Shown here: piece after piece, positions 3,181 to 59,369 of the stretch
How the letters are laid out: every line of letters starts with the position of its first letter
Position numbering within the stretch: the stretch's first letter is position 1
DNA from: a virus
Strand: one strand, 5' to 3'
DNA: 64,000 nucleotides
Virus record (IMG/VR): IMGVR_UViG_3300044710_000137
Coordinates: 20,546-84,545 of that record
Notes under the pieces: generated by a model
Databases searched by the model: none
What the model saw: the letters and a program-made list of their open reading frames with translations, nothing else
Told to the model about the DNA's origin: nothing
Translations under genes and position numbers: made by a program

Positions 3181-3453
3181 ATGACCGATAACGCGAAACG
3201 GCGAGGGGGCGACGGGGTGAACCGGCGAAGCCTTACCGAAAAGCGGTACACCAACATCCTCGATGCCATGGCGATCACGCACAGGATGGTCGAGATTCTG
3301 GACAGCCGCGTGAAGATTCTTGAGTCTCTAGTCCCGCGCATGGAATGGCTCGACGATCAAATAACCACCTACCTCTCTAAGCAGGATCCAGCGATCCGGC
3401 GCGGAGCGACGGGCGCGGCATCAAACCCAAAAGACTTGAAAGGTGGAAATTAA
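3181..3453 (+). CDS. hypothetical protein
   Basis: GGAGG RBS; first gene after the rightward promoter. Confidence 0.55.
   Translation: MTDNAKRRGGDGVNRRSLTEKRYTNILDAMAITHRMVEILDSRVKILESLVPRMEWLDDQITTYLSKQDPAIRRGATGAASNPKDLKGGN
3387..3426 (+). repeat. family A hairpin element
   Basis: CCAGC-stem-GCGGCATCAAAC. Confidence 0.85.
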
Positions 3454-3927
3454 ATGACTCATCAACAACCCCTCGCCTTACCATCCGCCCCCCTTCAGTG
3501 CATGCACTGTGGCGGCACTCGCTCCTCAGTAGAACTGGAACGCCAAACCATCGACACCCGTTTCACGCGCTACTCCAAAGGACTGCCCTGGAGTAAAGCA
3601 CCCTGCTGTGAACCACCGGATATCGAAGCCCCTTTGCTCGACGACGAAGCCACCGTTCTGCGCTGCCCGGAATGCGCCGGCGAGGACTTCGATATCCGCT
3701 CCTACGATTTCGGCACCGACAACCAAACCGGCTACCACGACGCCGGCGAACGCTATGAATGCTCATGCGGCGCAACCGGCGACGCGGCGGACCTGGAGCG
3801 GGTAACCATCGTCCTCAATCACGAGCTGGCTCCGGAGTGGCCCGAGATCCCCGTGTTGAAGCCCATCGGCGTGAAGGTGCATAAGTTCACGGCGCCGGAA
3901 TTCACCAAGCTGCCGGAGGTGGCGTGA
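3454..3927 (+). CDS. zinc-ribbon hypothetical protein
   Basis: several CxxC motifs. Confidence 0.6.
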   Translation: MTHQQPLALPSAPLQCMHCGGTRSSVELERQTIDTRFTRYSKGLPWSKAPCCEPPDIEAPLLDDEATVLRCPECAGEDFDIRSYDFGTDNQTGYHDAGERYECSCGATGDAADLERVTIVLNHELAPEWPEIPVLKPIGVKVHKFTAPEFTKLPEVA

Positions 3928-4141
3928 TGCGCCCAAAACGCCCCAACCGTTTCGGAGTAGGCCAAGCGGGCCCAGGCTTCAAGATGGACGCGCCAGGGCC
4001 GGGTAGGGTGATAGTTGATCGCCCGCAAGTCATCGCGCCCTATCTATCCCGATGCTGCGGTGTTGCTACCAAGTTCGTCGCCCGGCGCGGAGAGCGGGAC
4101 CTTCGCAGGTGCGGCCAGTGCGGCCAGGAGGATATTTACTG

Positions 4142-4495
4142 ATGACCATCGTTATCCGAGGCTTCATAGGCCAGAAGTGCGTATTCGAAGACACCCTGGA
4201 CCTGGACACCCAAAAGGAATTAGAAGCCATCATCCCGCAAATCGCCACCAAACACGCGGAGCTGCTCATGGACTCACCGCACATGATCGAAATGGAATTC
4301 CTGGACGATCCCGACCCCGCCTCCCGATTCTTCCGCTTCGGCACCGATCCACGCGGGATGGTGTTGCCTGTCGAACTAAACCTGCCGCCCTCGCCCGAGG
4401 GTCTACCAGCAACCGGCGCGGATGCGACGGGTGCGGCAGCAACGACTGAAGATTTTAATGGTGGTGAAGACGACACCGAACGAGGGAGGCGCTGA
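4142..4495 (+). CDS. hypothetical protein
   Basis: GGAGG RBS; MTIVIRG start. Confidence 0.6.
   Translation: MTIVIRGFIGQKCVFEDTLDLDTQKELEAIIPQIATKHAELLMDSPHMIEMEFLDDPDPASRFFRFGTDPRGMVLPVELNLPPSPEGLPATGADATGAAATTEDFNGGEDDTERGRR
4405..4443 (+). repeat. family A hairpin element
   Basis: ACCAGC...GCGGCAGCAAC. Confidence 0.85.
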
Positions 4496-4849
4496 ATGCC
4501 CCTCGTTCCCAGCTTCGACGATCTACTCCGGAAAATAGACGGGCGCATCGACAAATTTCTGGAGCCGCCTTACGACAAATACCTCCAACCCGCCGAAGGG
4601 CACCTGGAAGTGGGTCTGCTGCGGCAGGATCTATTGGCCTCAATAGGCGACGATATCGACGAGTACAACGCCGGTGCGTTCGTGGATATCGAACTAGAAG
4701 CCGAACCCCGCGCCGACGGATGGGATTTGAGATGCAGATTTCATAAAAACTGGGCACCGCGCCACCTGGAAAAGAAGGACGGCTGGACACAGGCTCTCAT
4801 AAACCAACTGGAACGGATCATCAACGAACTGCCTGGGGAGGGTCAATAA
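4496..4849 (+). CDS. hypothetical protein
   Basis: GGGAGG RBS; adjacent in operon. Confidence 0.6.
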   Translation: MPLVPSFDDLLRKIDGRIDKFLEPPYDKYLQPAEGHLEVGLLRQDLLASIGDDIDEYNAGAFVDIELEAEPRADGWDLRCRFHKNWAPRHLEKKDGWTQALINQLERIINELPGEGQ

Positions 4850-4881
4850 ATGTCGGTAGATCTACCCCGCGACAAATGGGA

Positions 4882-4920
4882 CCCAGCGCGGGACGCGGCG
4901 GCGGCACGCGCGGCATCAAC
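4882..4920 (+). repeat. family A hairpin element
   Basis: CCAGC...GCGGCATCAAC. Confidence 0.9.
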
Positions 4921-4948
4921 CCCTAAAGATTTTCAGGATGGTGAATAA

Positions 4949-5164
4949 ATGTACTTCACCCTTGAACTGAATGGAAAAAGAGAAATGGTAAAAGCCAGGA
5001 AAGGAATCTCTATCGGTCAAGTAACTCAACAAGCCTTCGGACCAACGGATAAAGACGCGCGAGTAGTCATCGCCACAAATCATCGGGATACGGCCCTCGG
5101 TGCTCTGTGTAAATGCTGGCCGCTATTCGATGAGCATAAGGAGGCTCATTATGGAAGTGCTTAA
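4949..5164 (+). CDS. hypothetical protein
   Basis: start directly after an A element. Confidence 0.5.
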   Translation: MYFTLELNGKREMVKARKGISIGQVTQQAFGPTDKDARVVIATNHRDTALGALCKCWPLFDEHKEAHYGSA

Positions 5165-5717
5165 ATTGCAAACGAACGTGCCGGTTCAGGTGGCATTCAA
5201 ATACCCCACCGGCAAGCCCTGCGACGGCCTGAGCGGCCCGCAAAAGATGTTCACCCTCATAGACGGCCGCATTCTCTTTTTATCGGTGCCGGCGGCTGAG
5301 CGGATCGAGCAGCAGCTCGGGGCGTTGGGGGTAGGAATCGGCGATGTGGATATATGCAAAGCGGAAGTCAGGAACGGCAACCGCAAAGGGATCGAGTATC
5401 AGGTCAAGCGGGTAAATCCACCCGCTCCACAAGACAACGGCGCGAACGGAGTCAAGCCGCCCGCGCCGCCTACGCCAGTTTCGCAACCGGCGCCTCGCTC
5501 AGATGGACAATCCAATGGTAACGCAACCAACGGGCATGCGGCCAATGGGAATGGCGCGAAAAGCAAATTAGGTACGGTTCTCTGCGAGGTCATCGACGCC
5601 TGCCACCAGGGAAGGCAGCACGCCAAGGATATCGGCTACGAAATGCCGGTATTCAACGGCGACGAGATCGTACGGATGGTCAATACGGTCATGATCCAGA
5701 ATGGAGGCTCCCGATGA
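5151..5717 (+). CDS. hypothetical protein, possibly a recombination or ssDNA-binding partner of the nuclease
   Basis: AGGAGG RBS; low-complexity linker; coupled to the PD-(D/E)XK gene. Confidence 0.55.
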   Translation: MEVLKLQTNVPVQVAFKYPTGKPCDGLSGPQKMFTLIDGRILFLSVPAAERIEQQLGALGVGIGDVDICKAEVRNGNRKGIEYQVKRVNPPAPQDNGANGVKPPAPPTPVSQPAPRSDGQSNGNATNGHAANGNGAKSKLGTVLCEVIDACHQGRQHAKDIGYEMPVFNGDEIVRMVNTVMIQNGGSR

Positions 5718-6517
5718 GCGCCGCGGCCGTTATCCCCATTACTACCGGCGTGGCCGATATTCTCTCGCCATCCCAGGTGAGCACCTTCCGCGACTGTGAG
5801 GCCCGCTGGGCGTACAAGTACCTCATAGGCCTCCCGGACCAGTCGAGCCCCGCCTTGGCCCTGGGAACCGCCGTAGACACGGCTATAAAAGCGACGTGGC
5901 ATCACAAACTGGACACCGGCATCGACCTACCCGTCGACGAGCTCGTGGAAATCTTTGCGGCCAAGTGGCTGGAAGAATCCGCGGAAGTGGAATTCACCCC
6001 CAAACAGGACAAAACCGAAATGGCCGCTCAGGGTGCCACCATGATCGATATCTACATGCGGGAAGCCGAACCAGCCATCCACCCCCGCGATGTAGACCTG
6101 GAGGTCCGGGGCAAGATCGCCGGCGTCCAGGTGCGCGGCTTCGTGGACCTGATCGACATTTCCGGCCGGGTAATTGAATTGAAGACTGCCGGCCGGACGC
6201 CATCGAATATCAGCCCCAACCACGCCTTCCAGTTGGCCACCTATGCACAACTGGCTCCGGATGTTAGCCCGCAAATGCGGGTGGATACTCTGGTCAAGCT
6301 GAAGAAACCCAAACTGGTGCAGATCGAGCACGAAATCACGCTGCCCGATTACCACTACCTAAGGTCCAGCTACCCCCTCGTGCAAGAAAAAATGCGCGAG
6401 GGTTTATTTGATTGCAACCGGAATAGTTGGCTTTGCCGTAGGGGTTCCTGCAGTTACTGGCAACGTTGCGAAGCCGAGTACGGCGGAATTGTGCCCGGCG
6501 GGGATGGTGACGAATGA
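5714..6517 (+). CDS. PD-(D/E)XK nuclease (RecB/Cas4-like exonuclease)
   Basis: LSPSQ...C, G.VD....IELKT, QLATY and a C-terminal Cys cluster. Confidence 0.88.
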   Translation: MSAAAVIPITTGVADILSPSQVSTFRDCEARWAYKYLIGLPDQSSPALALGTAVDTAIKATWHHKLDTGIDLPVDELVEIFAAKWLEESAEVEFTPKQDKTEMAAQGATMIDIYMREAEPAIHPRDVDLEVRGKIAGVQVRGFVDLIDISGRVIELKTAGRTPSNISPNHAFQLATYAQLAPDVSPQMRVDTLVKLKKPKLVQIEHEITLPDYHYLRSSYPLVQEKMREGLFDCNRNSWLCRRGSCSYWQRCEAEYGGIVPGGDGDE

Positions 6518-6653
6518 GCGCCAAACCATCCGTTCTTCTCGATGAGCCCAGGGTTGAGTCGCGCACGTCCACTCCCCTATTGCTCTGGTGGACTCTTTTG
6601 ATTGGCGTAGTCCTTGGGTGTGGATGTACATTGTTAGCTGTTTGGAGCCTTCA

Positions 6654-7016
6654 ATGAAAGCAAAAAGCAAATCAGGCAAATCAGTTGTTGATGCCGCCGG
6701 GGTCACGCCAGTGCCCCCGGCTGGTAGAACCGCACCGTCGCTTAAAGAGGCACCACCCTTTACTAGGGCGCAGAAAGACGAGGTGCTGCTCCTTGTATTC
6801 AGTATTTTATCCGCGGCTCACGGAATTGTGGAGGCGGCTATCGAAGACCGGGCTATTTCGGCACATGACGTCGAGTCTTACTACGGCACTTGGACCGAAC
6901 TACTCTGCACGGTGGACGGCGGCTATTATCAGGGTAGTTTGCTACGCGGCGATCTCTTCGACGACATCGAAGCCCGCTGCTTTCCTGGTGTGAAAATCAA
7001 AGGCGGCCCAGAATGA
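6654..7016 (+). CDS. hypothetical protein with an A-element-encoded N-terminus
   Basis: GGAG RBS; MKAKSKSGKSVVDAAGVTPVPPAG. Confidence 0.6.
   Translation: MKAKSKSGKSVVDAAGVTPVPPAGRTAPSLKEAPPFTRAQKDEVLLLVFSILSAAHGIVEAAIEDRAISAHDVESYYGTWTELLCTVDGGYYQGSLLRGDLFDDIEARCFPGVKIKGGPE
6687..6725 (-). repeat. family A hairpin element
   Basis: GTTGATGCCGC...GCTGGT on +. Confidence 0.9.
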
Positions 7017-7366
7017 CGCGTCTCACCAAGCCCGTCAAGCGCGAGGCTGCCACCGGGAGCCACGGCGGCAAGAAGTACAACCCGGAGGCCTACTTCCTTG
7101 AGCAATGTGGCTGGCGCATCGCTGCGAACGGCCAGTGGCTGAAACAAGGCTGGTACTTCACCGCAGATGAAGCTATGACCGTGCAGGTCGCGCTGGATGG
7201 CGGTGTGCTGAAATACCTGCCTCTGAAGCGTGATGCCACGCCGATCATGCAGCACAAGATTCGGGCCATCACCGAAGCCTGCCGAAAGCCGGAACCAGCG
7301 GCGGACACGGCCGTGGCCGACGCAGCTCCAAACAATAATCTTCCTGAGAAGCGAGGCCCAGAATGA
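7013..7366 (+). CDS. hypothetical protein
   Basis: ATGA coupling at both ends. Confidence 0.6.
   Translation: MTRLTKPVKREAATGSHGGKKYNPEAYFLEQCGWRIAANGQWLKQGWYFTADEAMTVQVALDGGVLKYLPLKRDATPIMQHKIRAITEACRKPEPAADTAVADAAPNNNLPEKRGPE
7294..7333 (+). repeat. family A hairpin element (degenerate tail)
   Basis: ACCAGC-stem-GCAGCTCCAAAC. Confidence 0.7.
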
Positions 7367-7710
7367 AAGAAAAAAGTAAATCAGGCAAATCATTTGTTGA
7401 TGCCGCCGGGGTCACGCCAGTGCCCCCGGCTGGTAAACCTGACAAGACTAACCTTCCGCCTATGAGTAGCCGAATACACCTCGCCCGCAGGTCGCCCTCC
7501 GGAAGACCGCAAGGACCTCTCCGGCTGGTTGCTCAGCACTTAGGTGGTTCCGGCACTGTAATTCTGGAATGCGGGCATCGGATTTATCGCGACACCACCC
7601 ACGATAAGCGGCGCCGATGCCCGGTCTGCCCGACGCAGCACCAAACAAAAAGCCTCTTACAAAACGGAGCAAGAAATGACGCGCCTCACCCGCCTCACCA
7701 AGCCGGTTAA
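7363..7710 (+). CDS. hypothetical zinc-ribbon protein
   Basis: LECGH...RRRCPVC; N-terminus shared with the 6654 gene. Confidence 0.55.
   Translation: MKEKSKSGKSFVDAAGVTPVPPAGKPDKTNLPPMSSRIHLARRSPSGRPQGPLRLVAQHLGGSGTVILECGHRIYRDTTHDKRRRCPVCPTQHQTKSLLQNGARNDAPHPPHQAG
7396..7434 (-). repeat. family A hairpin element
   Basis: identical to the 6687 copy. Confidence 0.9.
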
Positions 7711-7892
7711 GCGCGAAACTGCCACGGTCGTGCGCCACCGCGCCCTCATGGCCGAATTGCACGCCGGTTACCTGACGCTCCGCGAGAAAAGGGCGCCGCG
7801 CCGGCGTATCGGTCGATTACCGCGCCATCTACGACCTGGGATGGAAGATGCTGGCGCGCCAGAAGGCGGCGGAAAGGAAGGCTGCGCGATGA
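7676..7892 (+). pseudogene. small gene with an apparent +1 frameshift (or read error) in the A-run 7787-7790
   Basis: removing one A gives ...LREKGRRAGVSVDYRAIYDLGWKMLARQKAAERKAAR*, ending in an ATGA overlap at 7889. Confidence 0.55.
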
Positions 7893-8314
7893 ATGCTATC
7901 AAACTTATCTTGGACCTTCACAAGCACGACGGCGCCGATCCAGTATCAAAGCTCCCCGGCCTCTGGGAACGCAAACTCGACGACCGGTGGACGTTCTGGG
8001 TAAACGGCCACATGGAACCGCTACCCGTTCCGCACGATGCGGGCGCCCCGGAAATGCGCGTGCTGCCCGGTGAATGCTACGTCGAATACAACGGCTGGCC
8101 GGCTGCCACATTTTCGATAATCTGCCCCGGAGATGGTATTTTCGCCGCTGGCTCAGCCGCCAACTACCACACGTTCTGTGCGGCACTCGAAGCAGCCCTA
8201 TTGTCACCCATCTGTACCAGCGGAACTCCCCCGACAGCCAAGCCGGGCTCAGCTCCGGGTCTAACTGGCGATTTCCAACGCCGCAAAGCTCACAAGCAAA
8301 AAGGAGTGGATTGA
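7889..8314 (+). CDS. hypothetical protein
   Basis: MNAIKLIL start with AGGAAGG upstream. Confidence 0.6.
   Translation: MNAIKLILDLHKHDGADPVSKLPGLWERKLDDRWTFWVNGHMEPLPVPHDAGAPEMRVLPGECYVEYNGWPAATFSIICPGDGIFAAGSAANYHTFCAALEAALLSPICTSGTPPTAKPGSAPGLTGDFQRRKAHKQKGVD
8216..8295 (+). repeat. family C element
   Basis: ACCAGCGGAA...CGACA...CAGCTCC...GCGATT...AAGCTCACAA. Confidence 0.85.
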
Positions 8315-8315
8315 A

Positions 8316-8675
8316 ATGCTAAACCTCAGCACCCTTGTATATCTAATAACAGGTAGTATCCAACCCAGAAGGAAGAAGCGTAAGAAATTCCGTTCCCACC
8401 CAAACCGCTCAAAACCATACTTGGCCTGGATACGGACGCTCGATTGCCTCGTCCCCTTCTGCGAGTTCAAACCGATTCAAGCAGCCCACACTGGATCGGA
8501 CGGAGGAACCGGTATTAAGGCATCCGACTGGAGCGCGGTCCCATTGTGCCTGATTCATCACGCCCTCTATCACCAGATTGGCAAGCGGGCATTCGCAAAA
8601 CGGTATCGCCTCAATTTCCAGGCTATCGTAGAACGGCTGAACGCGATCTTTAAGAGTGGGGAGCGTGCGGCATGA
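8316..8675 (+). CDS. DUF968-like HNH-type nuclease
   Basis: YLAWIRTLDC...C...AAH...KASD...VPLC..HH..YH. Confidence 0.8.
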   Translation: MLNLSTLVYLITGSIQPRRKKRKKFRSHPNRSKPYLAWIRTLDCLVPFCEFKPIQAAHTGSDGGTGIKASDWSAVPLCLIHHALYHQIGKRAFAKRYRLNFQAIVERLNAIFKSGERAA

Positions 8676-9400
8676 AAACGCGTAAACCGTGCCCCGGATG
8701 CGGACAAGTCATCCATGGCAGGGAGGCTGAGAAGGTTTGCGTCGATTGCCGCCGCGCGATCGATAGTTGGAACAAACATATCGCGACCATTAAGGCTGCG
8801 CCGGATCAGTGCATGGTCTTACTGAAAGGCGTCTATCACTGGTATCCGATGTTTTACTTCGGCGGACCGCGATGCAGCATTTTTGAACTGGACGAGATGC
8901 GCGGGGAACTTGCCGAGTTTTTCGAGGAGTTAGCGACGCGGCTATGCTCCCATATTGTGGAGTGGCAGGACGCGAGAGGCGAGAAACCTGAAGAACTATT
9001 TCCGGTGCCCGACGTGCGGAAGCCGCTAAAAACCGGCCAAAACTACGCGGAGCCAGTCGGATATCCAGCCACGCATGGGGAAAGTAGCTACCACGATAAA
9101 ACGGGCCTGATCGACCGCCGCAACCTGGAGCTACTGCGCGGACTCTGGGACAGGACCGCCCGCTTTACGGATCTCGCCTACATCGCAGGATTGACCGACG
9201 GGCGCAATCTATTGCTGCAACTTTCAAGCGGTGCGCTGTCCGTGGACGATCTCCAGGAACACGACGTCAAGGTGGCGAGAGACCGCCAGAACGCCGCGTA
9301 CCTGCACCGGAAGCTCAAGGGGACGCCCAAGCGCACTCGGCAGAAACCAGCGGCCAACACGGATGTGGTGGACGCGGCATCGACATCAAAAGATTTGTAA
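8672..9400 (+). CDS. hypothetical protein with an N-terminal zinc finger
   Basis: CPGC...CVDC; coupled start. Confidence 0.65.
   Translation: MKTRKPCPGCGQVIHGREAEKVCVDCRRAIDSWNKHIATIKAAPDQCMVLLKGVYHWYPMFYFGGPRCSIFELDEMRGELAEFFEELATRLCSHIVEWQDARGEKPEELFPVPDVRKPLKTGQNYAEPVGYPATHGESSYHDKTGLIDRRNLELLRGLWDRTARFTDLAYIAGLTDGRNLLLQLSSGALSVDDLQEHDVKVARDRQNAAYLHRKLKGTPKRTRQKPAANTDVVDAASTSKDL
9346..9384 (+). repeat. family A hairpin element
   Basis: ACCAGC...GCGGCATCGAC. Confidence 0.9.
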
Positions 9401-9504
9401 ATGACCACCACCCACCCCACCCTCTTAGACTGGATCTGCTGGAAGCTCTTTATCTTCTTCCATCGCTCCCGTTGGAGCTGGCTCTGGCATAGACGGAGAA
9501 TTCG

Positions 9505-9801
9505 ATGAAGAAGGTCCGCATCGTTCAATGTCTCTGCCCTAAACGTCACTGCATGGCCGCCATGGCGTATCAGACGGAGGATGGCCAGGAGAACCCCGAG
9601 ATCCGAAAATTACTCCAGAAAAAATTTGAGCAGTTGATCGAGGCGCACCTTTGCAACCCTTGGTGCGGGTTGTGTAAAGCCCCCTATTCCACCTTCTTCT
9701 ACGAGGACATGCCCACCATCTTCGCCACCATGGAGGAGGCTCGCGTTTTTCATGGGAATGGTATTTGGGTCTCTCGGTACACTGGTAGTTATATGGAGTA
9801 G
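9505..9801 (+). CDS. hypothetical protein
   Basis: GGAG RBS; CLCP..HC and NPWCGLC motifs. Confidence 0.6.
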   Translation: MKKVRIVQCLCPKRHCMAAMAYQTEDGQENPEIRKLLQKKFEQLIEAHLCNPWCGLCKAPYSTFFYEDMPTIFATMEEARVFHGNGIWVSRYTGSYME

Positions 9802-9804
9802 AAC

Positions 9805-10158
9805 GTGAAAGAAGAAAAATCAGTTGTCGATGCCGCCGCGGTCGCCTCCACGCCCGCGGCTGGTAAAGGCGAACGCTGGTCGGGATCTGTGCAGGTTTGT
9901 CTTTTTCGCACGCATGACGATTCCGGCATCCGTATTGAGGTGTGGCTGAAAACCGAGGGCAACTGGAAGTTATCCTCGGACACCGACCACACCTGGCAGT
10001 CCCTGCATTGCCTGATCCACGAAGAACAACGCGAGGCGGGGCAATCCTCTGCCGCATCGCCGACGGCCTATTGGAAGCTGAACGCCATGGAACCAGCGGC
10101 CAACACGGATGTGGTGGACGCGGCACCAACACCTAAACATTTGAAAGATGAACCATGA
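9805..10158 (+). CDS. hypothetical protein bracketed by inverted A elements
   Basis: KSVVDAA at the N-terminus and PAANTDVVDAA at the C-terminus both derive from A elements. Confidence 0.55.
   Translation: MKEEKSVVDAAAVASTPAAGKGERWSGSVQVCLFRTHDDSGIRIEVWLKTEGNWKLSSDTDHTWQSLHCLIHEEQREAGQSSAASPTAYWKLNAMEPAANTDVVDAAPTPKHLKDEP
9826..9864 (-). repeat. family A hairpin element
   Basis: GTCGATGCCGC...GCTGGT. Confidence 0.9.
10092..10130 (+). repeat. family A hairpin element
   Basis: stem identical to the 9346 copy. Confidence 0.9.
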
Positions 10159-10384
10159 ACATCCGTACAGGCGCTGGTATTGCCGCGCTATTCGAGGAGC
10201 CAGAGATTGAGCACAAATGCAAGCGCTGCGGTGCCGCATTTTTCTCCCGATGTCGTAGTGTTAAACGATGCCCACCATGCCGAGCTGCGGTGAAGGACGA
10301 GCGCCAGAAGCGGCGGGATGCGGCGCGGCCAAAGCCCTAAGCCCAGATCGGCAATCCAAGCGATCCCTGGCACCCAAAGGTTCT

Positions 10385-10424
10385 ACCAGCGCGGGACACG
10401 GATTGTGGCCCGCGCGGCAGCAAC
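10385..10424 (+). repeat. family A hairpin element
   Basis: ACCAGC...GCGGCAGCAAC. Confidence 0.9.
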
Positions 10425-10465
10425 ATCAAATTTGACGTTTACGGCATCCTCCAATCCCGTAAGAA

Positions 10466-10792
10466 TCACCCACCCGCGGTCATGGTCTTCACTTGGCGCT
10501 TGGCAGCCTTGGCCCGTTTCTGCGCGGCCGCGCGGAGCTTCTCTTTGTGCGCTTCGGTTAGCGGGGCCCTCACACGGGTTACGTGGACCGTCGGCACGGA
10601 AGCTGTCCCGCCCAGCACCTGGTGATCGACTGCATTCCATGTGTTTGCGATCCCCACGATAATCGCACCGGCGAGCATAGCCCGCTGGCTGTCGGATAAC
10701 TGGCGCTGGCAGGTCAAGTAGATTGCCTCGGTGGTTGGATCCAAGCGAGGGGTATTGATTGATAGAGCTGGCTTCTTTGGTTTGTTTGGCAC
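10466..10792 (-). CDS. small basic putative nucleic-acid-binding protein
   Basis: C-terminal LTEAHKEKLRAAAQKRAKAAK. Confidence 0.5.
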   Translation of the reverse strand: MPNKPKKPALSINTPRLDPTTEAIYLTCQRQLSDSQRAMLAGAIIVGIANTWNAVDHQVLGGTASVPTVHVTRVRAPLTEAHKEKLRAAAQKRAKAAKRQVKTMTAGG

Positions 10793-10835
10793 TTGATTCT
10801 CCCTGAGGGACAGGGTAACGCAAAATCATTATAGG

Positions 10836-10922
10836 CTGGCGAGCTTCGGGCTTTTGGCGCCCACGCGCGATGGGCAAATGGGTGAGCGAATGGCTGTCGC
10901 GCATCACCTACCGCAGGCCCGG
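10836..10922 (+). repeat. family B element
   Basis: TGGCGAGCTTCG...GGCAAATGGGTG...CCGCAGGCCCGG. Confidence 0.85.
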
Positions 10923-11440
10923 TTCGTACTGATTTCGGCACTTACCTCACGGCCCAAATCTACCTCAAATAAATCTTCCGATTGGCAGAATAGGAAATGG
11001 AACGCGCTCGCCATTTCGAAAGCGCTGGGAGAACCTGAAAAGGCTGAAGCGCGCATTCTCCCACTGCTGCATGGCGGGAACCGGGTGCCGTCGCGACCTA
11101 TCGAGTTCAGTCCGGCTCTCCCATAGTTCCGCATTGCCGCAGGGCGGAGCATCGTCGGGCACACAGAACAGCACTCGCAGTTCCGGCATATCACGATAGA
11201 GGAGCGGCCGGTCGCGTCCGGACTCAAAGAACAGCAGCGATGCAAGCCACGCCTGCGATGTTTGGCTGAAACCCGCGGTGCAACGTTTGACGTGCGTGGC
11301 CGCGCAGTGAATCAGGGTGCTGCCGCCTTCGACCGCTACGATTTCGACAGATTTCGGAGGGGGTAGCATTATAAGCAGCATCGTGGATTTACCCTTGGGC
11401 CTAGCCATTTTGTTCAATATATCCCAGCGCCCCTGTGACC

Positions 11441-11520
11441 ACCAGCGGAATCCGCCCGACACAAAACCGGTCTCCAGTTCCCCGATGGCATCGCGCGATT
11501 TCCATAGATCGAAGCCAGAA
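11441..11520 (+). repeat. family C element
   Basis: ACCAGCGGAA...CAGTTCCCCGATGG...CGAAGCCAGAA. Confidence 0.85.
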
Positions 11521-11802
11521 AAGGCTCAATGCTGTTTTGGGTTACTTTTTACAGGTATGTTTGGTGGAACAGAATTGACCCCTGGTGCGTTCGCAAGCTT
11601 CATCCAGGCTTCGTAGTCCCAGTGAAGGATAGCGAGCTGTTCTAGGCTAATATGGCCGTGCTGGTAAAGATATTCCAGGAAGGTCATCGAGATCCATACT
11701 TCCTCTCCCACCGCTCACAGGATTTACGGTTCTCAGCTCGCATGCGTTCCTGTTCTCTCAACCGGCGCCAGTGGATTAGGTTATAGAGGCGTCTTAACCA
11801 GG

Positions 11803-12060
11803 TCAATTGAACCCCTCGATCCATTTTCTAACCTCATTCGGGTCATTGTGACCACCATAGAACATTGGGGCGATCATCTTGCCAGGGTGATCTTTCAACT
11901 CTGGATGTTTGCTCAGGTCTGAGAGCATCGAGGTCATCGCATTTACCGGATCGCCGGGAAGATACTCAAGGGCTCGGCGCTTGGCCCACTCCAGGTGTTC
12001 AGCGCGATTGCGAATGGTTGATTGTGGAAGACCGGCATAGTCTTCAGCATCATCGTTCAT
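11803..12060 (-). CDS. conserved phage hypothetical protein
   Basis: R.EHLEWAK.RALEYL...SMLSDL.KH...WIEGFN. Confidence 0.65.
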   Translation of the reverse strand: MNDDAEDYAGLPQSTIRNRAEHLEWAKRRALEYLPGDPVNAMTSMLSDLSKHPELKDHPGKMIAPMFYGGHNDPNEVRKWIEGFN

Positions 12061-12362
12061 TTCAGTCCACCTTCAGAAGTATTCGGTGTTGATGCCGCTT
12101 CCGTCGCCGCGGCGCCGGAAGCTGGTAGAACCAGTTCGGGTTCGCCTCCGACGCCCCTGAGTGCTTCGAGTACCGCTGCAGCTATGCCTATAGCGGGGGA
12201 ACGGTCGGTATTGTTGATGGCCGGCTTGAATTCCGCCTGGACATCCACACCGCCCCCTTCTACGTCGCTGATGGTGAGGGTGAAGGTGATGCGTCGACCA
12301 GCCGCAGGCACGGCGGTGACTGCGGCGGCATCAACAACTGATTTGCCTTTTAATTTTCGCAT
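12057..12362 (-). CDS. hypothetical protein bracketed by inverted A elements
   Basis: coupled at both ends. Confidence 0.55.
   Translation of the reverse strand: MRKLKGKSVVDAAAVTAVPAAGRRITFTLTISDVEGGGVDVQAEFKPAINNTDRSPAIGIAAAVLEALRGVGGEPELVLPASGAAATEAASTPNTSEGGLK
12088..12126 (-). repeat. family A hairpin element
   Basis: GTTGATGCCGC...GCTGGT. Confidence 0.9.
12297..12335 (+). repeat. family A hairpin element
   Basis: ACCAGC...GCGGCATCAAC. Confidence 0.9.
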
Positions 12363-12685
12363 TATACTATTGCCTCTAATAATGGCCGTGCTTTATCCTT
12401 CCGGATAATCCTGGTTTTCCGCGCCTTCCGCTTCCACACCCGGTAGTCGTGCTTCTTATGACACGGCTCGCACCAGGCCGCCAGGTTGTCGTCGGTATCA
12501 TGCCCCGGTGTTCGATCGATATGCGCGATCGATAAACGTAAACCCTCCCGCTTGCACTTCTCGCACCTGCCGCCGGCGCGCGCCAGTATCCGCGGGCGGA
12601 TGACATACCGCCAGTGATAGCCGTAGAATTTTCGGAGTTCCGGGCGCACGGGCACGGCTATCTCAATCTCCTCGACGCGGCCCAA
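12362..12685 (-). CDS. HNH endonuclease
   Basis: RAGGRCEKC...AHID....DNL..WC..CH..HD. Confidence 0.85.
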   Translation of the reverse strand: MGRVEEIEIAVPVRPELRKFYGYHWRYVIRPRILARAGGRCEKCKREGLRLSIAHIDRTPGHDTDDNLAAWCEPCHKKHDYRVWKRKARKTRIIRKDKARPLLEAIV

Positions 12686-13409
12686 TCGCTGAACTCCTTA
12701 TCCGCGACGGCGGCCGCCAAGCGTGCACCTTCGGGATCCGCCTCCAGACAGCGCAGCCATGCTTGGTGGTTAATGTTGGCCTGAACGCGGTTTGGCGGCT
12801 TGCGCGGACGCGGCGCGTGGTCCGGTTGATTTACGACTATACGGCGGATCCTCAGTATTTCGCGGACATCTTCCAGGCGGGCGACCCCGTACCGGATGAC
12901 CTCCTCGGCTAGGCCGAGCTGGCGGGGTGTCCAGCCATGCCGCAACAGTATCGCGGCACTCACCGATAGTGGGTGGGCGCCCATTTCACCTACCCCTCGC
13001 CTTAGCGTTGAGGATGTGCCGCGAAAGCTCGGTACATTTGCGGCAGTTCACGCGCTTCTGGGTGGGCGATAGGGCGGCGAGCTTCCGGATGAGGTGGTGG
13101 CCGCATTCCAGGCTAAGGTCCACGCGCGGGCCGCCGATGGAGTTTTGGGGCGGGCTGAGGAAGAGTATTCGCCTTAGGGTCACGGCTTTACTCTCCTGGT
13201 GTAGGTTTTGGCGAGGCGTGGGGGAATTACTTTACGGCGAGGTGGATGGCCATCGAGGATATCCTGGGCTTCTATTTCCTTGGTGAGCTCGTCCAGGATC
13301 TTGGCGCCCTCGCGGACTTCTTTATCGTGGGCCCGCATCATTCTTTTGGTGGTTAGGCTTTCTAACTGATTAGCCATAATTACCCTCCAAGTTCAAAATC
13401 AAAATCAGT

Positions 13410-13446
13410 GTTTGATGCCGCGCCGGTCAGCCTGCCCGGCGCTGGT
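13410..13446 (-). repeat. family A hairpin element
   Basis: GTTTGATGCCGC...GCTGGT. Confidence 0.9.
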
Positions 13447-13576
13447 GCCTGCATCTTCTTTTTCTGCCGCTTCTGTCTGCGTGCCGCCAGGCGCAAAGGC
13501 AAACCCGCCAGGCGCTCATTGACGAATTCCTTCTTGGTCTTCGGCTCGATCTCCAGCAGCCGCATTTGACGGACGG

Positions 13577-15319: not shown

Positions 15320-15472
15320 CGGAGCACGTCTCTTAGCGCGATGTGCTCGCCCTGTTCCCTGCCCTGCTGCTTAGCGAGGATCTCTCCGTCTTCAAACTGA
15401 ATAGCTCTACGGATCTCAGAAGATGATCTCCTCATTTCTTAAATTTCTCCTGGAGTGCCTGAGGGATTTGGT

Positions 15473-15511
15473 GTTGCTGCCGCGCGTGCCGCAGCCGCGT
15501 CCCGCGCTGGT
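15473..15511 (-). repeat. family A hairpin element
   Basis: GTTGCTGCCGC...GCTGGT. Confidence 0.9.
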
Positions 15512-15663
15512 TCCTGCCATCGGACAGTGGGCGGATTAGTTCTGATGTCCAGCACCCACCAGTAACCGCAGGTTTGGCACGTAGCCCGCAGCGACATACC
15601 GTACCTAAGTACTGGACCGCAACCATTTGGACAGTTGCGGGCATCCCAGACGATATCGCTTTT

Positions 15664-15702
15664 ACCAGCCGGGGGCGCGGCGGCGACACCGGCGGCATCA
15701 AC
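15664..15702 (+). repeat. family A hairpin element
   Basis: ACCAGC...GCGGCATCAAC. Confidence 0.9.
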
Positions 15703-15719
15703 AACTGATTTTTCTTGGC

Positions 15720-16112
15720 TCATGATCCTCCTCCTGCAGCCATACTTCGTTCCCCTTTCCACTTCAGCCTTAGAGCTTGGGCTGCTTTCTCTACTTCCAC
15801 TGCACTTGGTCTCAATCCACGCTCTGACGTCTTCACTACCGCTGCATTGAGAACCGCCGGCAATCTCATGATTTGAGCTGCTGCCACCAGGTTGTCCAAC
15901 TCCGATACGAACGTCGCTCCGAACTTCCCCGCTATTGATCTCTGTTGGTCACTGGCGTGTCTCCAAGCGGTTAGCCATACTCCAGGCCCATATTTTCGCT
16001 GGCTATAAACCCGGGCGTCCCGCAGCTCGCAATCCTCGATCCGGGCGATGGGGCGCTGGCTCTCGGTTTCGATGGCGATCCAGCAGAGTTTCTTGTGTTT
16101 GTGGTGCATCAA
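15720..16112 (-). CDS. hypothetical protein
   Basis: coupled to neighbours. Confidence 0.5.
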   Translation of the reverse strand: MMHHKHKKLCWIAIETESQRPIARIEDCELRDARVYSQRKYGPGVWLTAWRHASDQQRSIAGKFGATFVSELDNLVAAAQIMRLPAVLNAAVVKTSERGLRPSAVEVEKAAQALRLKWKGERSMAAGGGS

Positions 16113-17500: not shown

Positions 17501-17588
17501 GTCCGACAGTCTAGCAGAGGGCTAAGGACATAGGGTGTCCGACTGTCGAAAAATAGCTTGATGGGATATATGCAGAATTGCATTTTAT

Positions 17589-17624
17589 GTTGCTGCCGCG
17601 CCGGTCAGCCTGCCCGGCGCTGGT
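17589..17624 (-). repeat. family A hairpin element
   Basis: GTTGCTGCCGC...GCTGGT. Confidence 0.9.
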
Positions 17625-18290: not shown

Positions 18291-18350
18291 TGTTTCGCTC
18301 CTGCCGTGGTAGCGGCTTTTGATCGATCTCATATCCTCGATCTGATAATC

Positions 18351-18379
18351 AGTGTACTCCAGAGCTGTTTATGTGTCAA
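18351..18379 (-). promoter_or_regulatory. sigma70-type promoter
   Basis: TTGACA-N17-TACACT on the minus strand. Confidence 0.65.
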
Positions 18380-18407
18380 GCACTATTTCGAACTATTTTT
18401 GGCGGGC

Positions 18408-19466: not shown

Positions 19467-19505
19467 ACCAGCGCGGGACGCGGCGGCGGCACGCGCGGCA
19501 TCAAC
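19467..19505 (+). repeat. family A hairpin element
   Basis: same core as the 4882 copy. Confidence 0.9.
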
Positions 19506-29412: not shown

Positions 29413-29449
29413 GTTGATGCCGCGCCGGTCAGGCCTGCCCGGCGCTGGT
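29413..29449 (-). repeat. family A hairpin element
   Basis: GTTGATGCCGC...GCTGGT. Confidence 0.9.
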
Positions 29450-29795: not shown

Positions 29796-29835
29796 ACCAG
29801 CGCGGGACACGGCTTGTGGCCCGCGCGGCATCAAC
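29796..29835 (+). repeat. family A hairpin element
   Basis: ACCAGC...GCGGCATCAAC. Confidence 0.9.
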
Positions 29836-43584: not shown

Positions 43585-43623
43585 ACCAGCGCGGGACGCG
43601 GCTGCGGCACGCGCGGCAGCAAC
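43585..43623 (+). repeat. family A hairpin element
   Basis: reverse complement of the 15473 copy. Confidence 0.9.
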
Positions 43624-54010: not shown

Positions 54011-54043
54011 ACTGCCGCCGTTATTGACATCCTCCGAACGTCT

Positions 54044-54124
54044 ACCAGCGGAAGCCGCACGACAAGACAGCGGTCTCCAGTTCCCCGATGGCATCGCGCG
54101 ATTGACAGCGCATCGAAGCCACAA
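54044..54124 (+). repeat. family C element
   Basis: ACCAGCGGAA...CGAAGCCACAA. Confidence 0.88.
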
Positions 54125-54143
54125 CTCCTAAAAGACTTTTTCC

Positions 54144-55004: not shown

Positions 55005-55085
55005 ACCAGCGGAATCGTCACGACAGACAACCGCTCTCCAGCTCCCCGATGACAACGCGCGACTGACAGCGCATCGAAGCCACAA
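55005..55085 (+). repeat. family C element
   Basis: ACCAGCGGAA...CGAAGCCACAA. Confidence 0.88.
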
Positions 55086-55103
55086 CTCCTAAAAGACTTC
55101 ACC

Positions 55104-56631: not shown

Positions 56632-56710
56632 ACCAGCGGAATTCTCACGACACCCAAGAACGGCTCAGCTCCGAGAGTCACGCGCGATTGAAGCGCCGCA
56701 AAGCTCACAA
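56632..56710 (+). repeat. family C element
   Basis: ACCAGCGGAA...AAGCTCACAA. Confidence 0.88.
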
Positions 56711-56727
56711 GCCCTAAAAGTCTTCAG

Positions 56728-57619: not shown

Positions 57620-57636
57620 ACCTCTGGAGGGTCTCG
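57620..57636 (+). promoter_or_regulatory. RBS-sequestering hairpin upstream of the endonuclease
   Basis: AGACCTC-TG-GAGGGTCT traps GGAGG. Confidence 0.6.
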
Positions 57637-57638
57637 AA

Positions 57639-58469
57639 ATGCGACCCAATTCTACCATCACCACCAAGCGCTGCCGCGGCTGCAACGAAACGAAGGACAT
57701 CCAAAACTTTTACTGGCGAGAGGACCGCCAAACACATTTCACGCTTTGCATTGTCTGCTGGAACAAACATGCCGAGGATCGCCGCAGGGCTAGCCGCGAA
57801 AAGGCTCTCACCTACCCGGGTGGCGAGAAGCGCTGCTGGCGCTGCAAACAGTCCAAGCCCTACGCGGACTTTCCGCGTTGCTCCACGAATAGTTCCGGAT
57901 TCAGCAAGGCGTGCCGTCCTTGCAACGCTATATTACACAGTCTTTGGTACGAGAAAAATAGGCTAGCGCAGCCGGAGCCGCCGGCAGAAAAACGCTGCCG
58001 CTGTTGCAAAGAGAACAAAGCGCGCGTTGAGTTTAGTATCGACCGCGCTTCCTTGGATGGCCTGAAACAATGGTGCCGCGAATGCTCCGCCCGCGCTTAT
58101 CAGGCGCGCAAGCGCCCACTCCTTTATTCCAGGCCGGCCAATATTCGGCATGATTACGGACTCTCGACCGAGGGATACGACGCCATCATTCAGCGCCAGA
58201 ATAACCGCTGCGCAATCTGTGGCAAAACCCCTCCCAGGCTCGTAGTGGACCACGATCACAAGACAGATGCGATCCGGGGGATGCTCTGCTCGCCCTGCAA
58301 CCAATTTCTTGCTGTAGTCGAAATCGCCGGAATGGTCGAAAGCGCCCAGCGCTATCTCATTCTGAGTAAAATCACCGGCGACTTGCGGCCCATCGTCCAA
58401 CCGAACGGCTTGCCGCACCCGCGCCGGGACGCGTACCTGAAGAAGATCAAGATGGGCAAGCCGGCCTAA
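57639..58469 (+). CDS. free-standing endonuclease VII-family endonuclease with N-terminal zinc fingers
   Basis: three KRC..C...K....F repeats; YGL...Y......Q..RCAIC...VDHDH....RG.LC..CN. Confidence 0.9.
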   Translation: MRPNSTITTKRCRGCNETKDIQNFYWREDRQTHFTLCIVCWNKHAEDRRRASREKALTYPGGEKRCWRCKQSKPYADFPRCSTNSSGFSKACRPCNAILHSLWYEKNRLAQPEPPAEKRCRCCKENKARVEFSIDRASLDGLKQWCRECSARAYQARKRPLLYSRPANIRHDYGLSTEGYDAIIQRQNNRCAICGKTPPRLVVDHDHKTDAIRGMLCSPCNQFLAVVEIAGMVESAQRYLILSKITGDLRPIVQPNGLPHPRRDAYLKKIKMGKPA

Positions 58470-58478
58470 CAGTTCGTT

Positions 58479-58790
58479 ATGCGTCTGCTTCTTTTGCTTT
58501 TGCTCATACCCCTGGCAGCCCAAGACGTGCGCGTGATCCACCTCTCGCCGGCGGATGCAAAGATCCTCGCTCAGATCGGCAACGCCAAATTGCAAGCCGA
58601 CGAAAACTGGCGCCAGGCCGAGAAATACGTCCGTTGGAAGTACGCGGCCGAGCCGGGCATCGCACAAGCTGGTGACGCGCAGGTAGACGTCAAGAATCCC
58701 AGGAACGGCTGGGAATACGGCGTTCAGTTCTCGCAGGACTTCAGTGTCATCGTTCCGAAGCCGAAGCCTTGCGAAGACGATGAGCATTAA
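58479..58790 (+). CDS. small secreted protein
   Basis: MRLLLLLLLIPLAA-Q. Confidence 0.6.
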   Translation: MRLLLLLLLIPLAAQDVRVIHLSPADAKILAQIGNAKLQADENWRQAEKYVRWKYAAEPGIAQAGDAQVDVKNPRNGWEYGVQFSQDFSVIVPKPKPCEDDEH

Positions 58791-58807
58791 GGGGCGCTGC
58801 TATCCAT

Positions 58808-59305
58808 TCAATCGGACCGTTTGCCGGTGCGCGGGGTGGCATCCGGGTCTTTGGATGCGTCGTACACGGAAAGAATAGCCGCCGCAAGCGCGTTCAGGCC
58901 GCGCTGGGTATCCACATGATAGGACCCAACCCCGAAGCCTTTGTACCACTCGCGCGGTGATGGACAGCCACAGTGACCGGCCACGCGCACCTCGCGCCCT
59001 AATTCAGCATGCAGTTTCTCCGCTACTTCGACGGGCAATCCAGGGCCCTCGGCGCACCAGTAGTACCAAGCACGCTTAAAGCTCCACATCGATAAACTCC
59101 CGAATGCCAGCGAGGGAACCTCGCCTTGAATAACGTTCCAAAGCATCGCTACTTCAATTCCAGCTTCTCGCAGCTCAGCCTCGGCTGTCGCGGTCACTTC
59201 CGCAATCGTGGCAGGGTCGAACGGCTGCGGCCGCGCCAGATTCGGCAAGTTGTTTTCGCCAACACATGACGGCGAGACGCCCGCAGAACTGATGGTCAAG
59301 CTCAT
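58808..59305 (-). CDS. conserved hypothetical protein (antisense insert)
   Basis: W.F.RAWYYW; RVAGHCGCPSP.EW; YHVDTQ.GL. Confidence 0.65.
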   Translation of the reverse strand: MSLTISSAGVSPSCVGENNLPNLARPQPFDPATIAEVTATAEAELREAGIEVAMLWNVIQGEVPSLAFGSLSMWSFKRAWYYWCAEGPGLPVEVAEKLHAELGREVRVAGHCGCPSPREWYKGFGVGSYHVDTQRGLNALAAAILSVYDASKDPDATPRTGKRSD

Positions 59306-59329
59306 ACCCCCAGTCTAGCTAAATCTGAA

Positions 59330-59369
59330 ACCAGCGATCCGGCGCGGAAGCGACGGGCGCGGCATCAAC
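59330..59369 (+). repeat. family A hairpin element
   Basis: near-identical to the 3387 copy. Confidence 0.9.

Follow-up and report, generated by a model that had tools for sequence, protein, structure and literature searches.

What are the GC-rich hairpins scattered through this phage DNA, and do they act as DNA or as RNA? The first-pass annotation had listed 21 such elements, here termed family A, in the window (the whole 64,000-nucleotide stretch analysed, part of an 84.5-kb phage contig), and its count and positions are reproduced by a covariance model, which matches exactly 21 copies. The underlying observation is thus confirmed as real, and its interpretation is partly supported, as set out below.

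Copies and their gene context

The covariance model was built from the contig's 28 copies, namely those in the window and 7 further ones in the preceding 20.5 kb, where it matches nothing else; these 28 match by construction. Independent support comes from 26 additional copies found by the model in related soil-phage records, since these were absent from model building. The first 54 copies amount to 41 distinct hairpins, and a fixed-gap pattern of the flanks has 14 matches in the window, whereas 100 shuffles averaged 0.02. Family A is a structured DNA repeat that occurs dispersed in uncultivated soil phages of one small clade, and it is spread across divergent phages. Its copies in the window, all matched by the covariance model, are listed here with three longer elements (family B) whose beginning and terminus resemble family A.

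3387..3425, plus: family A, read in frame within the C-terminal tail of ORF 3181-3453 (also from ORF context)
4405..4443, plus: family A, read in frame close to the C-terminus of ORF 4142-4495
4882..4920, plus: family A, most of the 32-aa mini-ORF 4850-4948
6687..6725, minus: family A, antisense, codons 11-24 of ORF 6654-7016
7294..7332, plus: family A, with the weakest flanks of all, read in frame close to the C-terminus of ORF 7013-7366
7396..7434, minus: family A, antisense, opposing the 7294 plus copy across a 63-nt gene junction
9346..9384, plus: family A, read in frame, C-terminus of ORF 8672-9400
9826..9864, minus: family A, antisense, codons 7-20 of ORF 9805-10158
10092..10130, plus: family A, in frame at the C-terminus of ORF 9805-10158
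10385..10424, plus: family A, 40 nt, intergenic at a convergent gene junction
12088..12126, minus: family A, sense, C-terminus of minus-strand ORF 12057-12362
12297..12335, plus: family A, antisense, codons 9-22 of ORF 12057-12362
13411..13446, minus: family A, 36 nt with a short inner hairpin, sense, C-terminus of ORF 13380-13580
15473..15511, minus: family A, intergenic, 38 nt upstream of the start of ORF 15223-15435
15664..15702, plus: family A, coding status ambiguous
17589..17624, minus: family A, short type, intergenic, 89 nt upstream of HTH gene 17030-17500
19467..19505, plus: family A, intergenic, 72 nt upstream of ORF 19577-20008
29413..29449, minus: family A, 37 nt, intergenic, 52 nt upstream of ORF 29068-29361
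29796..29835, plus: family A, 40 nt, intergenic, 17 nt upstream of ORF 29852-29992
43585..43623, plus: family A, 5' leader, 20 nt upstream of structural gene 43643-44284
54044..54138, plus: family B, longer element, in a leader where the relative G002 has a family A copy
55005..55099, plus: family B, longer element, same relation to family A as at 54044..54138
56632..56724, plus: family B, longer element, same relation to family A as at 54044..54138
59330..59369, plus: family A, 5' leader, 26 nt upstream of a 928-aa head-closure-like gene

The mini-ORF 4850-4948 is wedged between two genes through two TAAATG junctions, and the 7396 minus copy lies, by reading, near the N-terminus of ORF 7363-7710, which the codon-usage gene caller left uncalled. 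The gene for an Xer-like recombinase is bracketed by the 17589 minus and 19467 plus copies, and G002 has a family A copy at the place matching 59330 plus.

Our own codon-usage gene calls correct the initial placement of the elements at gene junctions: of the 21 window copies, 10 are intergenic and 11 fall within ORFs (8 sense, 3 antisense). Across the whole contig, 16 of 28 copies lie within called ORFs, where they are read in frame, and 11 are intergenic. Five form linkers in a 3,397-aa DarB-like protein. Each orientation of the unit has one stop-free frame, so the unit is tolerated inside ORFs; the in-frame copies read as Ala/Pro/Gly-rich linkers, N-terminal heads or C-terminal tails, and the fixed frame per orientation yields recurrent peptides.

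Both orientations occur, as had been reported, but the split is uneven (about 20 sense versus 8 antisense among the 28). Among the 11 intergenic copies, nine precede the next same-strand start codon by 17-89 nt. The proposed independence from transcription direction is therefore contradicted, and this sense bias together with the position upstream of starts makes an RNA role possible. Along the genome, orientation alternates (20 runs versus 14.3 expected, P = 0.016), the median gap being 304 nt for minus-plus neighbours and 1075 nt for plus-minus neighbours.

Fold, covariation and strand

The family A unit spans about 55-65 nt, of which the hairpin takes up 23-27 nt. It comprises a conserved 5' flank terminating in ACCA, a GC hairpin in which the stem letters are free but pairing is required, with an obligatory purine-purine opposition and a bulged A at the foot, and then a conserved GGCAKCAAC and a short T-rich tail. 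The consensus first described was correct: ACCA, 7-bp stem, R, 3-bp stem, loop, R, stem, GGCA(T/G/C)CAAC. The flanks are nearly invariant, with a conserved extension (T4 R5 A6) beyond on the 3' side, where the sequence is AT-rich, and T-rich and G-poor over about 80 nt. The stretches of exact sequence that copies share measure 6 nt at one side and about 9-15 nt at the opposite side. CTAC precedes ACCA in about 12 of 28 copies, the remainder carrying GGAA-type flanks. Types of 5' flank, hairpin and 3' tail occur in shuffled combinations among the copies.

The stems covary, as had been claimed. Among the 28 contig copies, both sides change at 5 of the 7 pairs in the outer stem (92% paired) and at 1 of the 3 in the inner stem (99% paired). 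With all 54 copies, 10 of 17 stem pairs change on both sides, and the covariation score of 0.306 compares with 0.101 in shuffles, none of 500 of which attain it, and with at most 0.072 when the pairing partners are slid. The two reported irregularities are also retained: the bulged A is present in 54/54 copies, and the facing purines are GA in 36, AG in 17, GG in 1 and AA in none, where independence, computed by hand from the marginals, predicts about 11 AA and 12 GG. Other non-Watson-Crick stem oppositions (n = 30) include 23 G.A or A.G and no C.T or T.C, and G.T is nearly absent (3 cells). The suggested GTT/AAC closure proved weak, its three pairs forming in 11, 14 and 17 of 28 copies. Selection on structure rather than sequence, the initial inference, describes the compensatory stem changes, but sequence is under selection as well, in the near-invariant flanks and the conserved T4 R5 A6.

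The invariant bulged A and the near-invariant purine-purine mismatch make the folding strand-specific. DNA parameters give the ACCA..CAAC (top) strand the greater stability in 54/54 copies, and RNA parameters give it to the bottom strand in 43/54; the latter counts against single-stranded DNA, although nearest-neighbour energies are a poor guide to mismatches with either parameter set. The earlier proposal of a single-stranded DNA or cruciform recognition site survives in part, in that the mismatch types, the rarity of G.T and the strand stability fit a folded single strand. This strand is probably DNA, and we infer that single-stranded DNA is the active form.

Turnover among related phages

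Two close relatives, G407 and G001, have flanking genes 81-95% identical, yet none of the six family A copies in their common stretch has a counterpart. At 66484-68367 in G001, an inverted pair surrounds RNA-ligase-like and PAPS-reductase-like genes where G407 has 20 nt; conversely, at about 8000-9227 in G407, an inverted pair surrounds a radical-SAM gene where G001 has about 100 nt. Copies are thus gained or lost together with cargo between close relatives, as expected for recombination or transposition sites, on an evidence base of one pair of relatives and three loci. As for a MITE-like origin, inverted pairs do bound two indels; the junctions show just GTTG/CAAC microhomology and no clear target-site duplication, and one boundary falls 33 nt beyond the repeat. 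Paired copies usually differ in stem sequence.

Copies also stand at mosaic joints. In the DarB-like protein, the copy at genome position 11463 (plus) aligns with a G001 copy, with unrelated sequence on both sides. A 2H/Acb1-like domain has family A copies on its flanks in G000 and none in G001, and the interval between terminase and portal genes holds a single copy in L200 and 3.6 kb in G000. Unrelated loci, and different genomes, share hairpins of the same subtype that are either identical or distinct in the loop alone, and orthologous leaders carry different family A subtypes or a B-type element in place of A. Some orthologous structural genes differ between relatives in whether the element is present; since orthologues exist with and without it, the element is dispensable for the neighbouring gene.

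Known systems and competing readings

That family A was not at first recognised as a described element agrees with our Rfam searches: at gathering thresholds the whole window gave just two tRNA matches, and no match overlapped any copy in region 3000-20500 at E <= 5. The analogy drawn with attC and REP sites holds for the likeness in fold, whereas membership in either fails on defining features.

The PeSL (promoter-early stem-loop) cassettes of T4-type phages offer one comparison. Extracts of PMC2839356 and PMC4122927 portray short dispersed phage repeats with a stem-loop which, like family A, flank variable genes of mostly unknown function and mark end points of insertion, deletion or replacement between related phages; here such end points are the three G001/G407 loci, the DarB-like N-terminus and the L200 terminase-portal gap. 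The same extracts describe PeSLs as intergenic, carrying a sigma-70 consensus promoter and terminating transcription, whereas in-frame translation of family A copies is frequent in either orientation. In 3000-20500, none of 17 copies was called as an intrinsic terminator (a GC stem with an immediate T run), and none overlaps any of 10 promoter-like sites; the hairpin is strong, yet the T-rich run begins about 6 or more nt past CAAC. Unlike PeSLs, family A copies tend toward inverted pairs; their stem letters change in compensated fashion while the unpaired bases stay fixed, a pattern that points to structure-specific recognition rather than plain homology.

REPs and REPINs, as excerpted in PMC3733652, are imperfect GC-rich palindromes of 20-40 bp with a conserved unpaired tag, often close together in opposite orientation, sometimes within genes, and thought to be mobilised as folded single strands. 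Family A, with its 23-27-nt hairpins in 28 copies over 84.5 kb, is likewise a short repeated palindrome. The GTAG or CGTC tag given in that excerpt (PMC3733652) is approached only by the CTAC of about 12/28 copies. The invariant flanks of family A are instead ACCA and GGCAKCAAC. Its CTAC, the complement of GTAG, presumably lies on the opposite stem side to the tag of E. coli REP. REPs are extragenic in bacterial chromosomes, whereas family A is on a phage contig with 16/28 copies in ORFs, and a pattern scan of bacterial genomes gave no true member, only chance matches in one conserved coding stretch. Rickettsia palindromic elements, also palindromic repeats, likewise enter unrelated protein-coding genes in frame, contributing an extra peptide; they are about 150 bp long and chromosomal, and the excerpted account does not describe them bracketing cargo or at protein termini in both orientations (PMC10969869).

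For attC, family A shares a single-strand fold (bulged A 54/54, R.R 54/54, covarying stems), a likeness in the site's presumed working rather than evidence of membership. attC sites have variable stem sequence with a conserved fold, fixed extrahelical or unpaired bases marking one strand, GTT/AAC triplets at the foot and an association with accessory-gene cassettes, all paralleled here, and a tyrosine recombinase is encoded nearby. The attC consensus places the inverse core RYYYAAC at the 5' end and the core GTTRRRY at the 3' end; family A reads GTT...AAC 5' to 3' on both strands, the opposite polarity. Its foot helix is weak, pairing in 11-17 of 28 copies, and it forms inverted pairs, whereas attC has one site per cassette in one direction. 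Integron membership was rejected: the recombinase is Xer-like rather than IntI-type, copy orientation alternates, and no attI or Pc was identified.

Among rival explanations, selection on the peptide product, whether an Ala/Pro/Gly linker or a common tag at the N- or C-terminus, with the nucleotide hairpin as an incidental feature, would account for the copies within ORFs and the recurrent peptides. It is highly improbable and already close to refuted: the two orientations encode different peptides, 11/28 copies are intergenic, compensatory stem changes alter the peptide freely, and 3'-tail positions are conserved in coding, antisense-coding and non-coding copies alike. It is unlikely, too, that the flanks merely give short homology for general recombination by phage or host, with a hairpin read by no enzyme and the palindrome persisting as a weak transcriptional insulator. 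Such linkers would suit copies at mosaic joints and indel ends, the shuffling of flank, hairpin and tail types and the phage's PD-(D/E)XK exonuclease, and PeSLs are described in this role in an extract of PMC2839356. Homology alone, however, leaves the bulged A, the G.A/A.G alternation and the compensatory changes unexplained, the exact shared sequence is short, and both indels are inverted pairs with no solo copy remaining, which crossing-over between direct repeats would not yield.

A role as an intercistronic element in mRNA, the leading alternative, is a possible if doubtful reading. A sense-transcribed hairpin with conserved flanks and a U-rich tail could be a processing or stabilising element, for which phage T7 RNase III sites and REP mRNA stabilisers are comparison models, or a pause or attenuation signal read through via the phage NusG paralogue; antisense and coding copies would then be by-products. 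This reading draws on the sense bias, the intergenic copies upstream of same-strand starts, gene starts within tens of nucleotides after sense coding copies too, the presence of A- or B-type elements in G000 and G002 leaders ahead of orthologous structural genes, and the long T-rich, G-poor 3' flank. The phage also encodes, at 20751-21320, a member of the NusG family (Pfam NusG, 7.5e-15) that has a homologue in G001, and LoaP requires a small leader RNA hairpin according to an extract of PMC12691694. Against it stand the 8/28 antisense copies and the 5 inside one ORF, the near absence of G.U pairs with purine-purine top-strand mismatches, the expression of orthologous genes without the element in close relatives, and the lack of terminator-like or promoter-like calls among the 17 copies.

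The reading we prefer, which we hold at about even confidence, is a REP/MITE/attC-like single-strand DNA hairpin joining insertable cassettes. The ACCA..CAAC strand would fold by itself, most likely as single-stranded DNA, and the folded unit would serve as a joint for insertion, deletion or exchange of DNA segments, both accessory genes and domain modules inside one giant protein gene; read in this way, the hairpins mark gain, loss and swapping of accessory genes and protein domains. Several observations count against such joints. The differing stems of paired copies are unlike typical transposon ends, and site-specific recombination between inverted sites produces inversion, not excision. 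The sense bias, the copies upstream of starts and the recurrent A and B leaders fit a cis-acting RNA. Counting against transposition, no DDE enzyme was seen among the scanned proteins; unlike in REP systems, no RAYT/Y1 (IS200) transposase was found, Pfam Y1_Tnp matching 0/3 phage records searched and controls in 6/14 genomes.

A structure-specific enzyme would presumably act on the hairpin; this phage's own candidates are a short Xer-like tyrosine recombinase and the PD-(D/E)XK exonuclease module, and a host enzyme is another, unless the joining is done by short-homology recombination instead. The phage does encode a PD-(D/E)XK exonuclease. For the recombinase, the best solved relatives are XerC-like (7.9e-14) and XerD (6.9e-12), and IntI4 gives a marginal partial match (6.3e-4 over 40 residues).

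Structure and distribution of the hairpin family

Family A, a ~39-nt hairpin repeat written here on its ACCA..CAAC strand, is a real, structured and strand-specific element of a phage assembled from soil metagenomes. The window spans positions 20546-84545 of an 84,545-bp viral contig. The 28 copies in this contig were aligned to train a covariance model, which, together with a structural scan, recovered the 21 copies that the first-pass annotation had reported in the window, the first and last exactly where it had placed them, and the individual copies it had quoted read as it described; seven further copies lie upstream of the window, where nothing else matched. The fixed-gap pattern of the flanks gave 14 matches against 0.02 expected (100 shuffles). 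The model also detected copies outside its training set. Among related soil-phage records, G001 (87.7 kb, with terminal repeats) carries 11 copies, two of them weak or partial, and G002 (a 15.5-kb fragment) carries seven; G407 and G408, which are 99.99% identical over their shared 11.5 kb, carry two each. Eleven short soil and peat metagenome contigs contributed 14 matches, four of which (on three contigs) duplicate G002, leaving 10 on eight contigs. The window's phage (G000) is only distantly related to G001 and G002: nucleotide similarity is limited to a few genes, and its portal and major head proteins share just ~31-33% identity with those of G001. The flanks of family A are conserved among phages that otherwise share little.

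Among the 28 contig copies, 92% of the cells of the outer 7-bp stem are paired, five of its seven pairs changing on both sides, and the inner 3-bp stem is 99% paired, with 14 G-C and 13 A-U copies at its middle pair. The covariation claimed for the stems holds in an alignment of 54 copies: both sides change in 10 of 17 pairs, and the score of 0.306 exceeds the 0.101 obtained with shuffles (none of 500 attained the observed value) and the maximum of 0.072 for slid partners. These values come from paralogues that are not independent and from an alignment whose fitting to the model favours structure. Pairing in the outer GTT/AAC extension is weak, at 66% overall, and its three terminal pairs form in 11, 14 and 17 of 28 copies. 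Some unpaired features hardly vary: all 54 copies have an A separating the CC/GG pairs from the stem, and 51 have an A.C opposition. The purines facing each other between the stems are G.A in 36 copies, A.G in 17, G.G in one and A.A in none, and the remaining non-Watson-Crick oppositions in the stems comprise 14 G.A, 9 A.G, 3 G.T/T.G, 2 C.C and 2 A.C/C.A, with no C.T/T.C. This purine-biased asymmetry of the mismatches therefore points to one strand, ACCA..CAAC. Stability predictions give only a hint of strand preference: DNA parameters favour the ACCA..CAAC strand in all 54 copies, and RNA parameters the opposite strand in 43.

Beyond CAAC the 3' side is conserved too, with A at +6 in 44 of 45 copies, a purine at +5 in 41, T at +4 in 35 and T at +10 in 33. 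The G+C content of the first 20-30 nt there is 36-38%, against 58-59% on the 5' side; the contig as a whole has 59%. The 3' tract is T-rich and G-poor, fading over ~100-150 nt. A subset of copies, in G001, G002, the metagenome contigs L186, L200, L220 and L224 and at about 43545-43584 in the window, has an extra module ~35-45 nt upstream, in which a CCACC-type motif precedes a very small hairpin of 3-4 bp, again with compensatory changes in its stem.

No Rfam family matches the copies, in keeping with the annotation's failure to recognise a described element, and searches of the published literature, supplements aside, turned up no description of it; GenBank phages gave no blastn match to window positions 3001-11000. 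Two sequencing runs were listed as containing this DNA, both of them soil metagenomes in contig form, and no RNA run was listed. A CRISPR-repeat mimic was set aside, the spacing being irregular, the stems variable and the Rfam search free of any CRISPR-DR match. A host REP was rejected: of 37 stretches found by a pattern scan of bacterial genomes, the model scored only seven, weakly (25-27 bits), all within one conserved coding stretch of Acidobacteriota MAGs, which is probably the GlmS SIS domain. Four such genomes yielded no model match among the 150 candidates scored in each, out of thousands, and the portal protein had no match in 401 genomes (G003 and 400 of its phylum, Acidobacteriota according to the locus title).

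Placement of the copies among genes

Annotated genes of the contig are the following (window coordinates unless marked as genome, that is, whole-contig, positions).

Genome 8902-19095, just upstream of the window (locus L001): DarB-like methyltransferase/helicase protein, 3,397 aa (phrog_10089, E = 0)
5714-6517: PD-(D/E)XK nuclease
18408-19088: short Xer-like tyrosine recombinase
20751-21320: NusG-family protein (paralogue)
26353-26775: GerE-type HTH protein
Within the window: portal, major head protein, scaffold and head-closure proteins
Within the window: small terminase and split large terminase

By our own codon-usage gene caller, 16 of the 28 copies lie inside ORFs (11 sense, 5 antisense), one overlaps an ORF end in antisense and 11 are intergenic, the context being doubtful for copy 15664, assigned to a weak 44-aa ORF, and copy 7396, inside an ORF that the caller missed. 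Sense copies within ORFs are read in a single frame and form Pro/Ala-rich tails near the stop codon; antisense copies, also in a single frame, lie a few codons past the start. A purely peptide-level explanation of the family is close to excluded. For nine of the 11 intergenic copies, the next start codon on the same strand follows 17-89 nt past the 3' end, and none of the 17 copies in 3000-20500 coincides with a sigma-70-like or terminator-like site. A 32-aa mini-ORF (4850-4948) consists almost wholly of one A copy, with TAAATG stop-start junctions to both neighbours, and looks like a cassette without cargo.

The DarB-like ORF is read through five copies of alternating orientation, which flank a small domain, a low-complexity stretch, a 2H domain and another module. 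The N-terminal 900 residues are modular, the 2H phosphoesterase/Acb1-like domain occupying residues 592-680, and the G001 version (4,827 aa) differs in its N- and C-terminal modules. Inversion switching of in-frame modules was rejected, the opposite strand between the A copies of this giant ORF not being open. Hairpin promoters of an N4-like virion RNA polymerase, suspected from the 3,397-aa ORF, were ruled out because the ORF is DarB-like and contains a 2H domain.

A longer element, family B (~95 nt, with multiple hairpins), occurs at 54044-54138, 55005-55099 and 56632-56724, 4-7 nt upstream of structural-gene start codons; it starts with ACCAGC, and its CAAC..TAAAAG tail resembles that of family A. 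Orthologous structural-gene leaders contain an A copy in G002 and the longer family B element, with its A-like beginning and end, in G000.

Turnover of copies and cargo between relatives

Family A turns over quickly, along with its cargo. Evidence on indels is limited to a single pair of relatives, G001 and G407, which are syntenic at 78-95% nucleotide identity: their shared stretch holds four copies in G001 (one weak) and two in G407, and in no case does the other record have a copy at the corresponding position. The G001 segment 66484-68367, with a minus and a plus A copy at its ends, carries RNA-ligase-like and PAPS-reductase-like genes where G407 has 20 nt, and the G407 segment at about 8000-9227, bounded in the same manner, carries a radical-SAM gene where G001 has ~100 nt. 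A third G001 copy is missing, together with ~340 nt beside it, upstream of the orthologous G407 gene. The indel junctions share only GTTG/CAAC microhomology, one boundary falls 33 nt beyond the repeat, and no clear target duplication was seen at the G001/G407 junctions.

One A copy of the DarB-like proteins aligns between G000 and G001 with unrelated sequence on either side, and the 2H domain is common to both phages, with flanking A copies in G000 only. In contig L200, the 857 nt that separate the terminase homology from the portal homology hold a single copy; G000 has ~3.6 kb there and no copy. The same hairpin subtype, with copies that are identical or vary in the loop alone, recurs at unrelated loci and across genomes. 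Orientations alternate along G000 (20 runs against 14.3 expected, P = 0.016), the median gap being 304 nt for minus-then-plus neighbours and 1075 nt for plus-then-minus neighbours. Apparent recombination joints at metagenome contig breaks on A copies were treated as repeat artefacts, because their 20-59-letter sides equal the repeat itself.

Models of family A function

Most likely, family A acts as DNA: its folded single strand would be what is recognised, and the element would form the joint between insertable segments. Phage genomes are mosaics in which the sequences at points of module exchange can rarely be identified; here a structured, strand-specific and recognisable repeat marks module joints in uncultivated soil phages, brackets accessory genes (RNA-ligase-like with PAPS-reductase-like, radical-SAM and the 2H/Acb1-like domain) and is built so that translation can pass through it. 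Less probably, the copies may act as RNA, with the NusG paralogue as candidate partner: the sense bias of the copies and their leader positions speak for it, and LoaP (PMC12691694) offers an analogy for the partnership of a NusG paralogue with an RNA element. Family A would then be a leader or processing motif of a new type, perhaps linked to the phage NusG paralogue.

Under the preferred, DNA-level reading, a more specific and in our estimate improbable version is that these phages operate their own cassette system. The folded single-strand sites, family A and the longer family B with its shared ends, would be the substrates of a dedicated, structure-specific enzyme that breaks and rejoins them, possibly the short Xer-like recombinase; counter-defence genes would thereby move between phage genomes, and whole domains would be spliced in frame into the injected DarB-like protein, which would be possible because the hairpin sites are stop-free. 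Such domain-level shuffling would amount to integron-like logic within a virus. If a dedicated enzyme does read the hairpins, they would constitute a compact, orientation-tolerant recombination site, a new way for phages to trade counter-defence functions and a new route to assembling multidomain injected proteins.

The consensus features of attC sites, E. coli REP, T7 RNase III sites and CTX-phage integration form the background to any such comparison. Family A falls outside REP/REPIN, attC and PeSL (the promoter-early stem-loops of T4-type phages), departing from each on at least one defining feature, and is a doubtful MITE: it lacks the conserved GTAG tag of REP/REPIN, and no RAYT was present in the three phage records searched; its GTT/AAC polarity is reversed relative to attC, and there is no IntI; no clear target duplication of the MITE kind was seen; and, unlike PeSL, the 17 copies in 3000-20500 coincide with no promoter-like or terminator-like site. 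In its proposed role, as a joint recognised as a folded single strand, it would resemble REP/REPIN, attC and MITE ends; in its evolutionary effect it resembles PeSL.

Several further features of the genome were observed. The 204-aa protein encoded at 22488-23102 shares 79% identity with its G001 homologue, against ~31-33% for the portal and major head proteins, which suggests that its gene was recently exchanged, like the DarB-like core (82% identity). The protein has no Pfam match and was considered and dropped as a cognate factor for the A copies; its conserved Ser-His, Glu and Cys motifs make it a putative permuted papain-like amidase. The large terminase is encoded by two ORFs 6.7 kb apart (23969-24697 and 31370-32158), both matched by a single 518-aa G001 protein (residues 23-264 and 270-518), and A copies 29413 (minus) and 29796 (plus) lie inside the intervening DNA, not at its ends. 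Rfam gave a 115-nt tRNA-like match at 2934-3048 on the minus strand (50.5 bits) that is absent from the ARAGORN output, and ARAGORN reported a tRNA at 20166-20238 on the plus strand with its anticodon undetermined. Finally, contig L170 aligns in one orientation with each terminus of the 84.5-kb contig (genome about 4-167 and 84395-84517), so that the record would begin and end with a direct repeat of ~120 bp.
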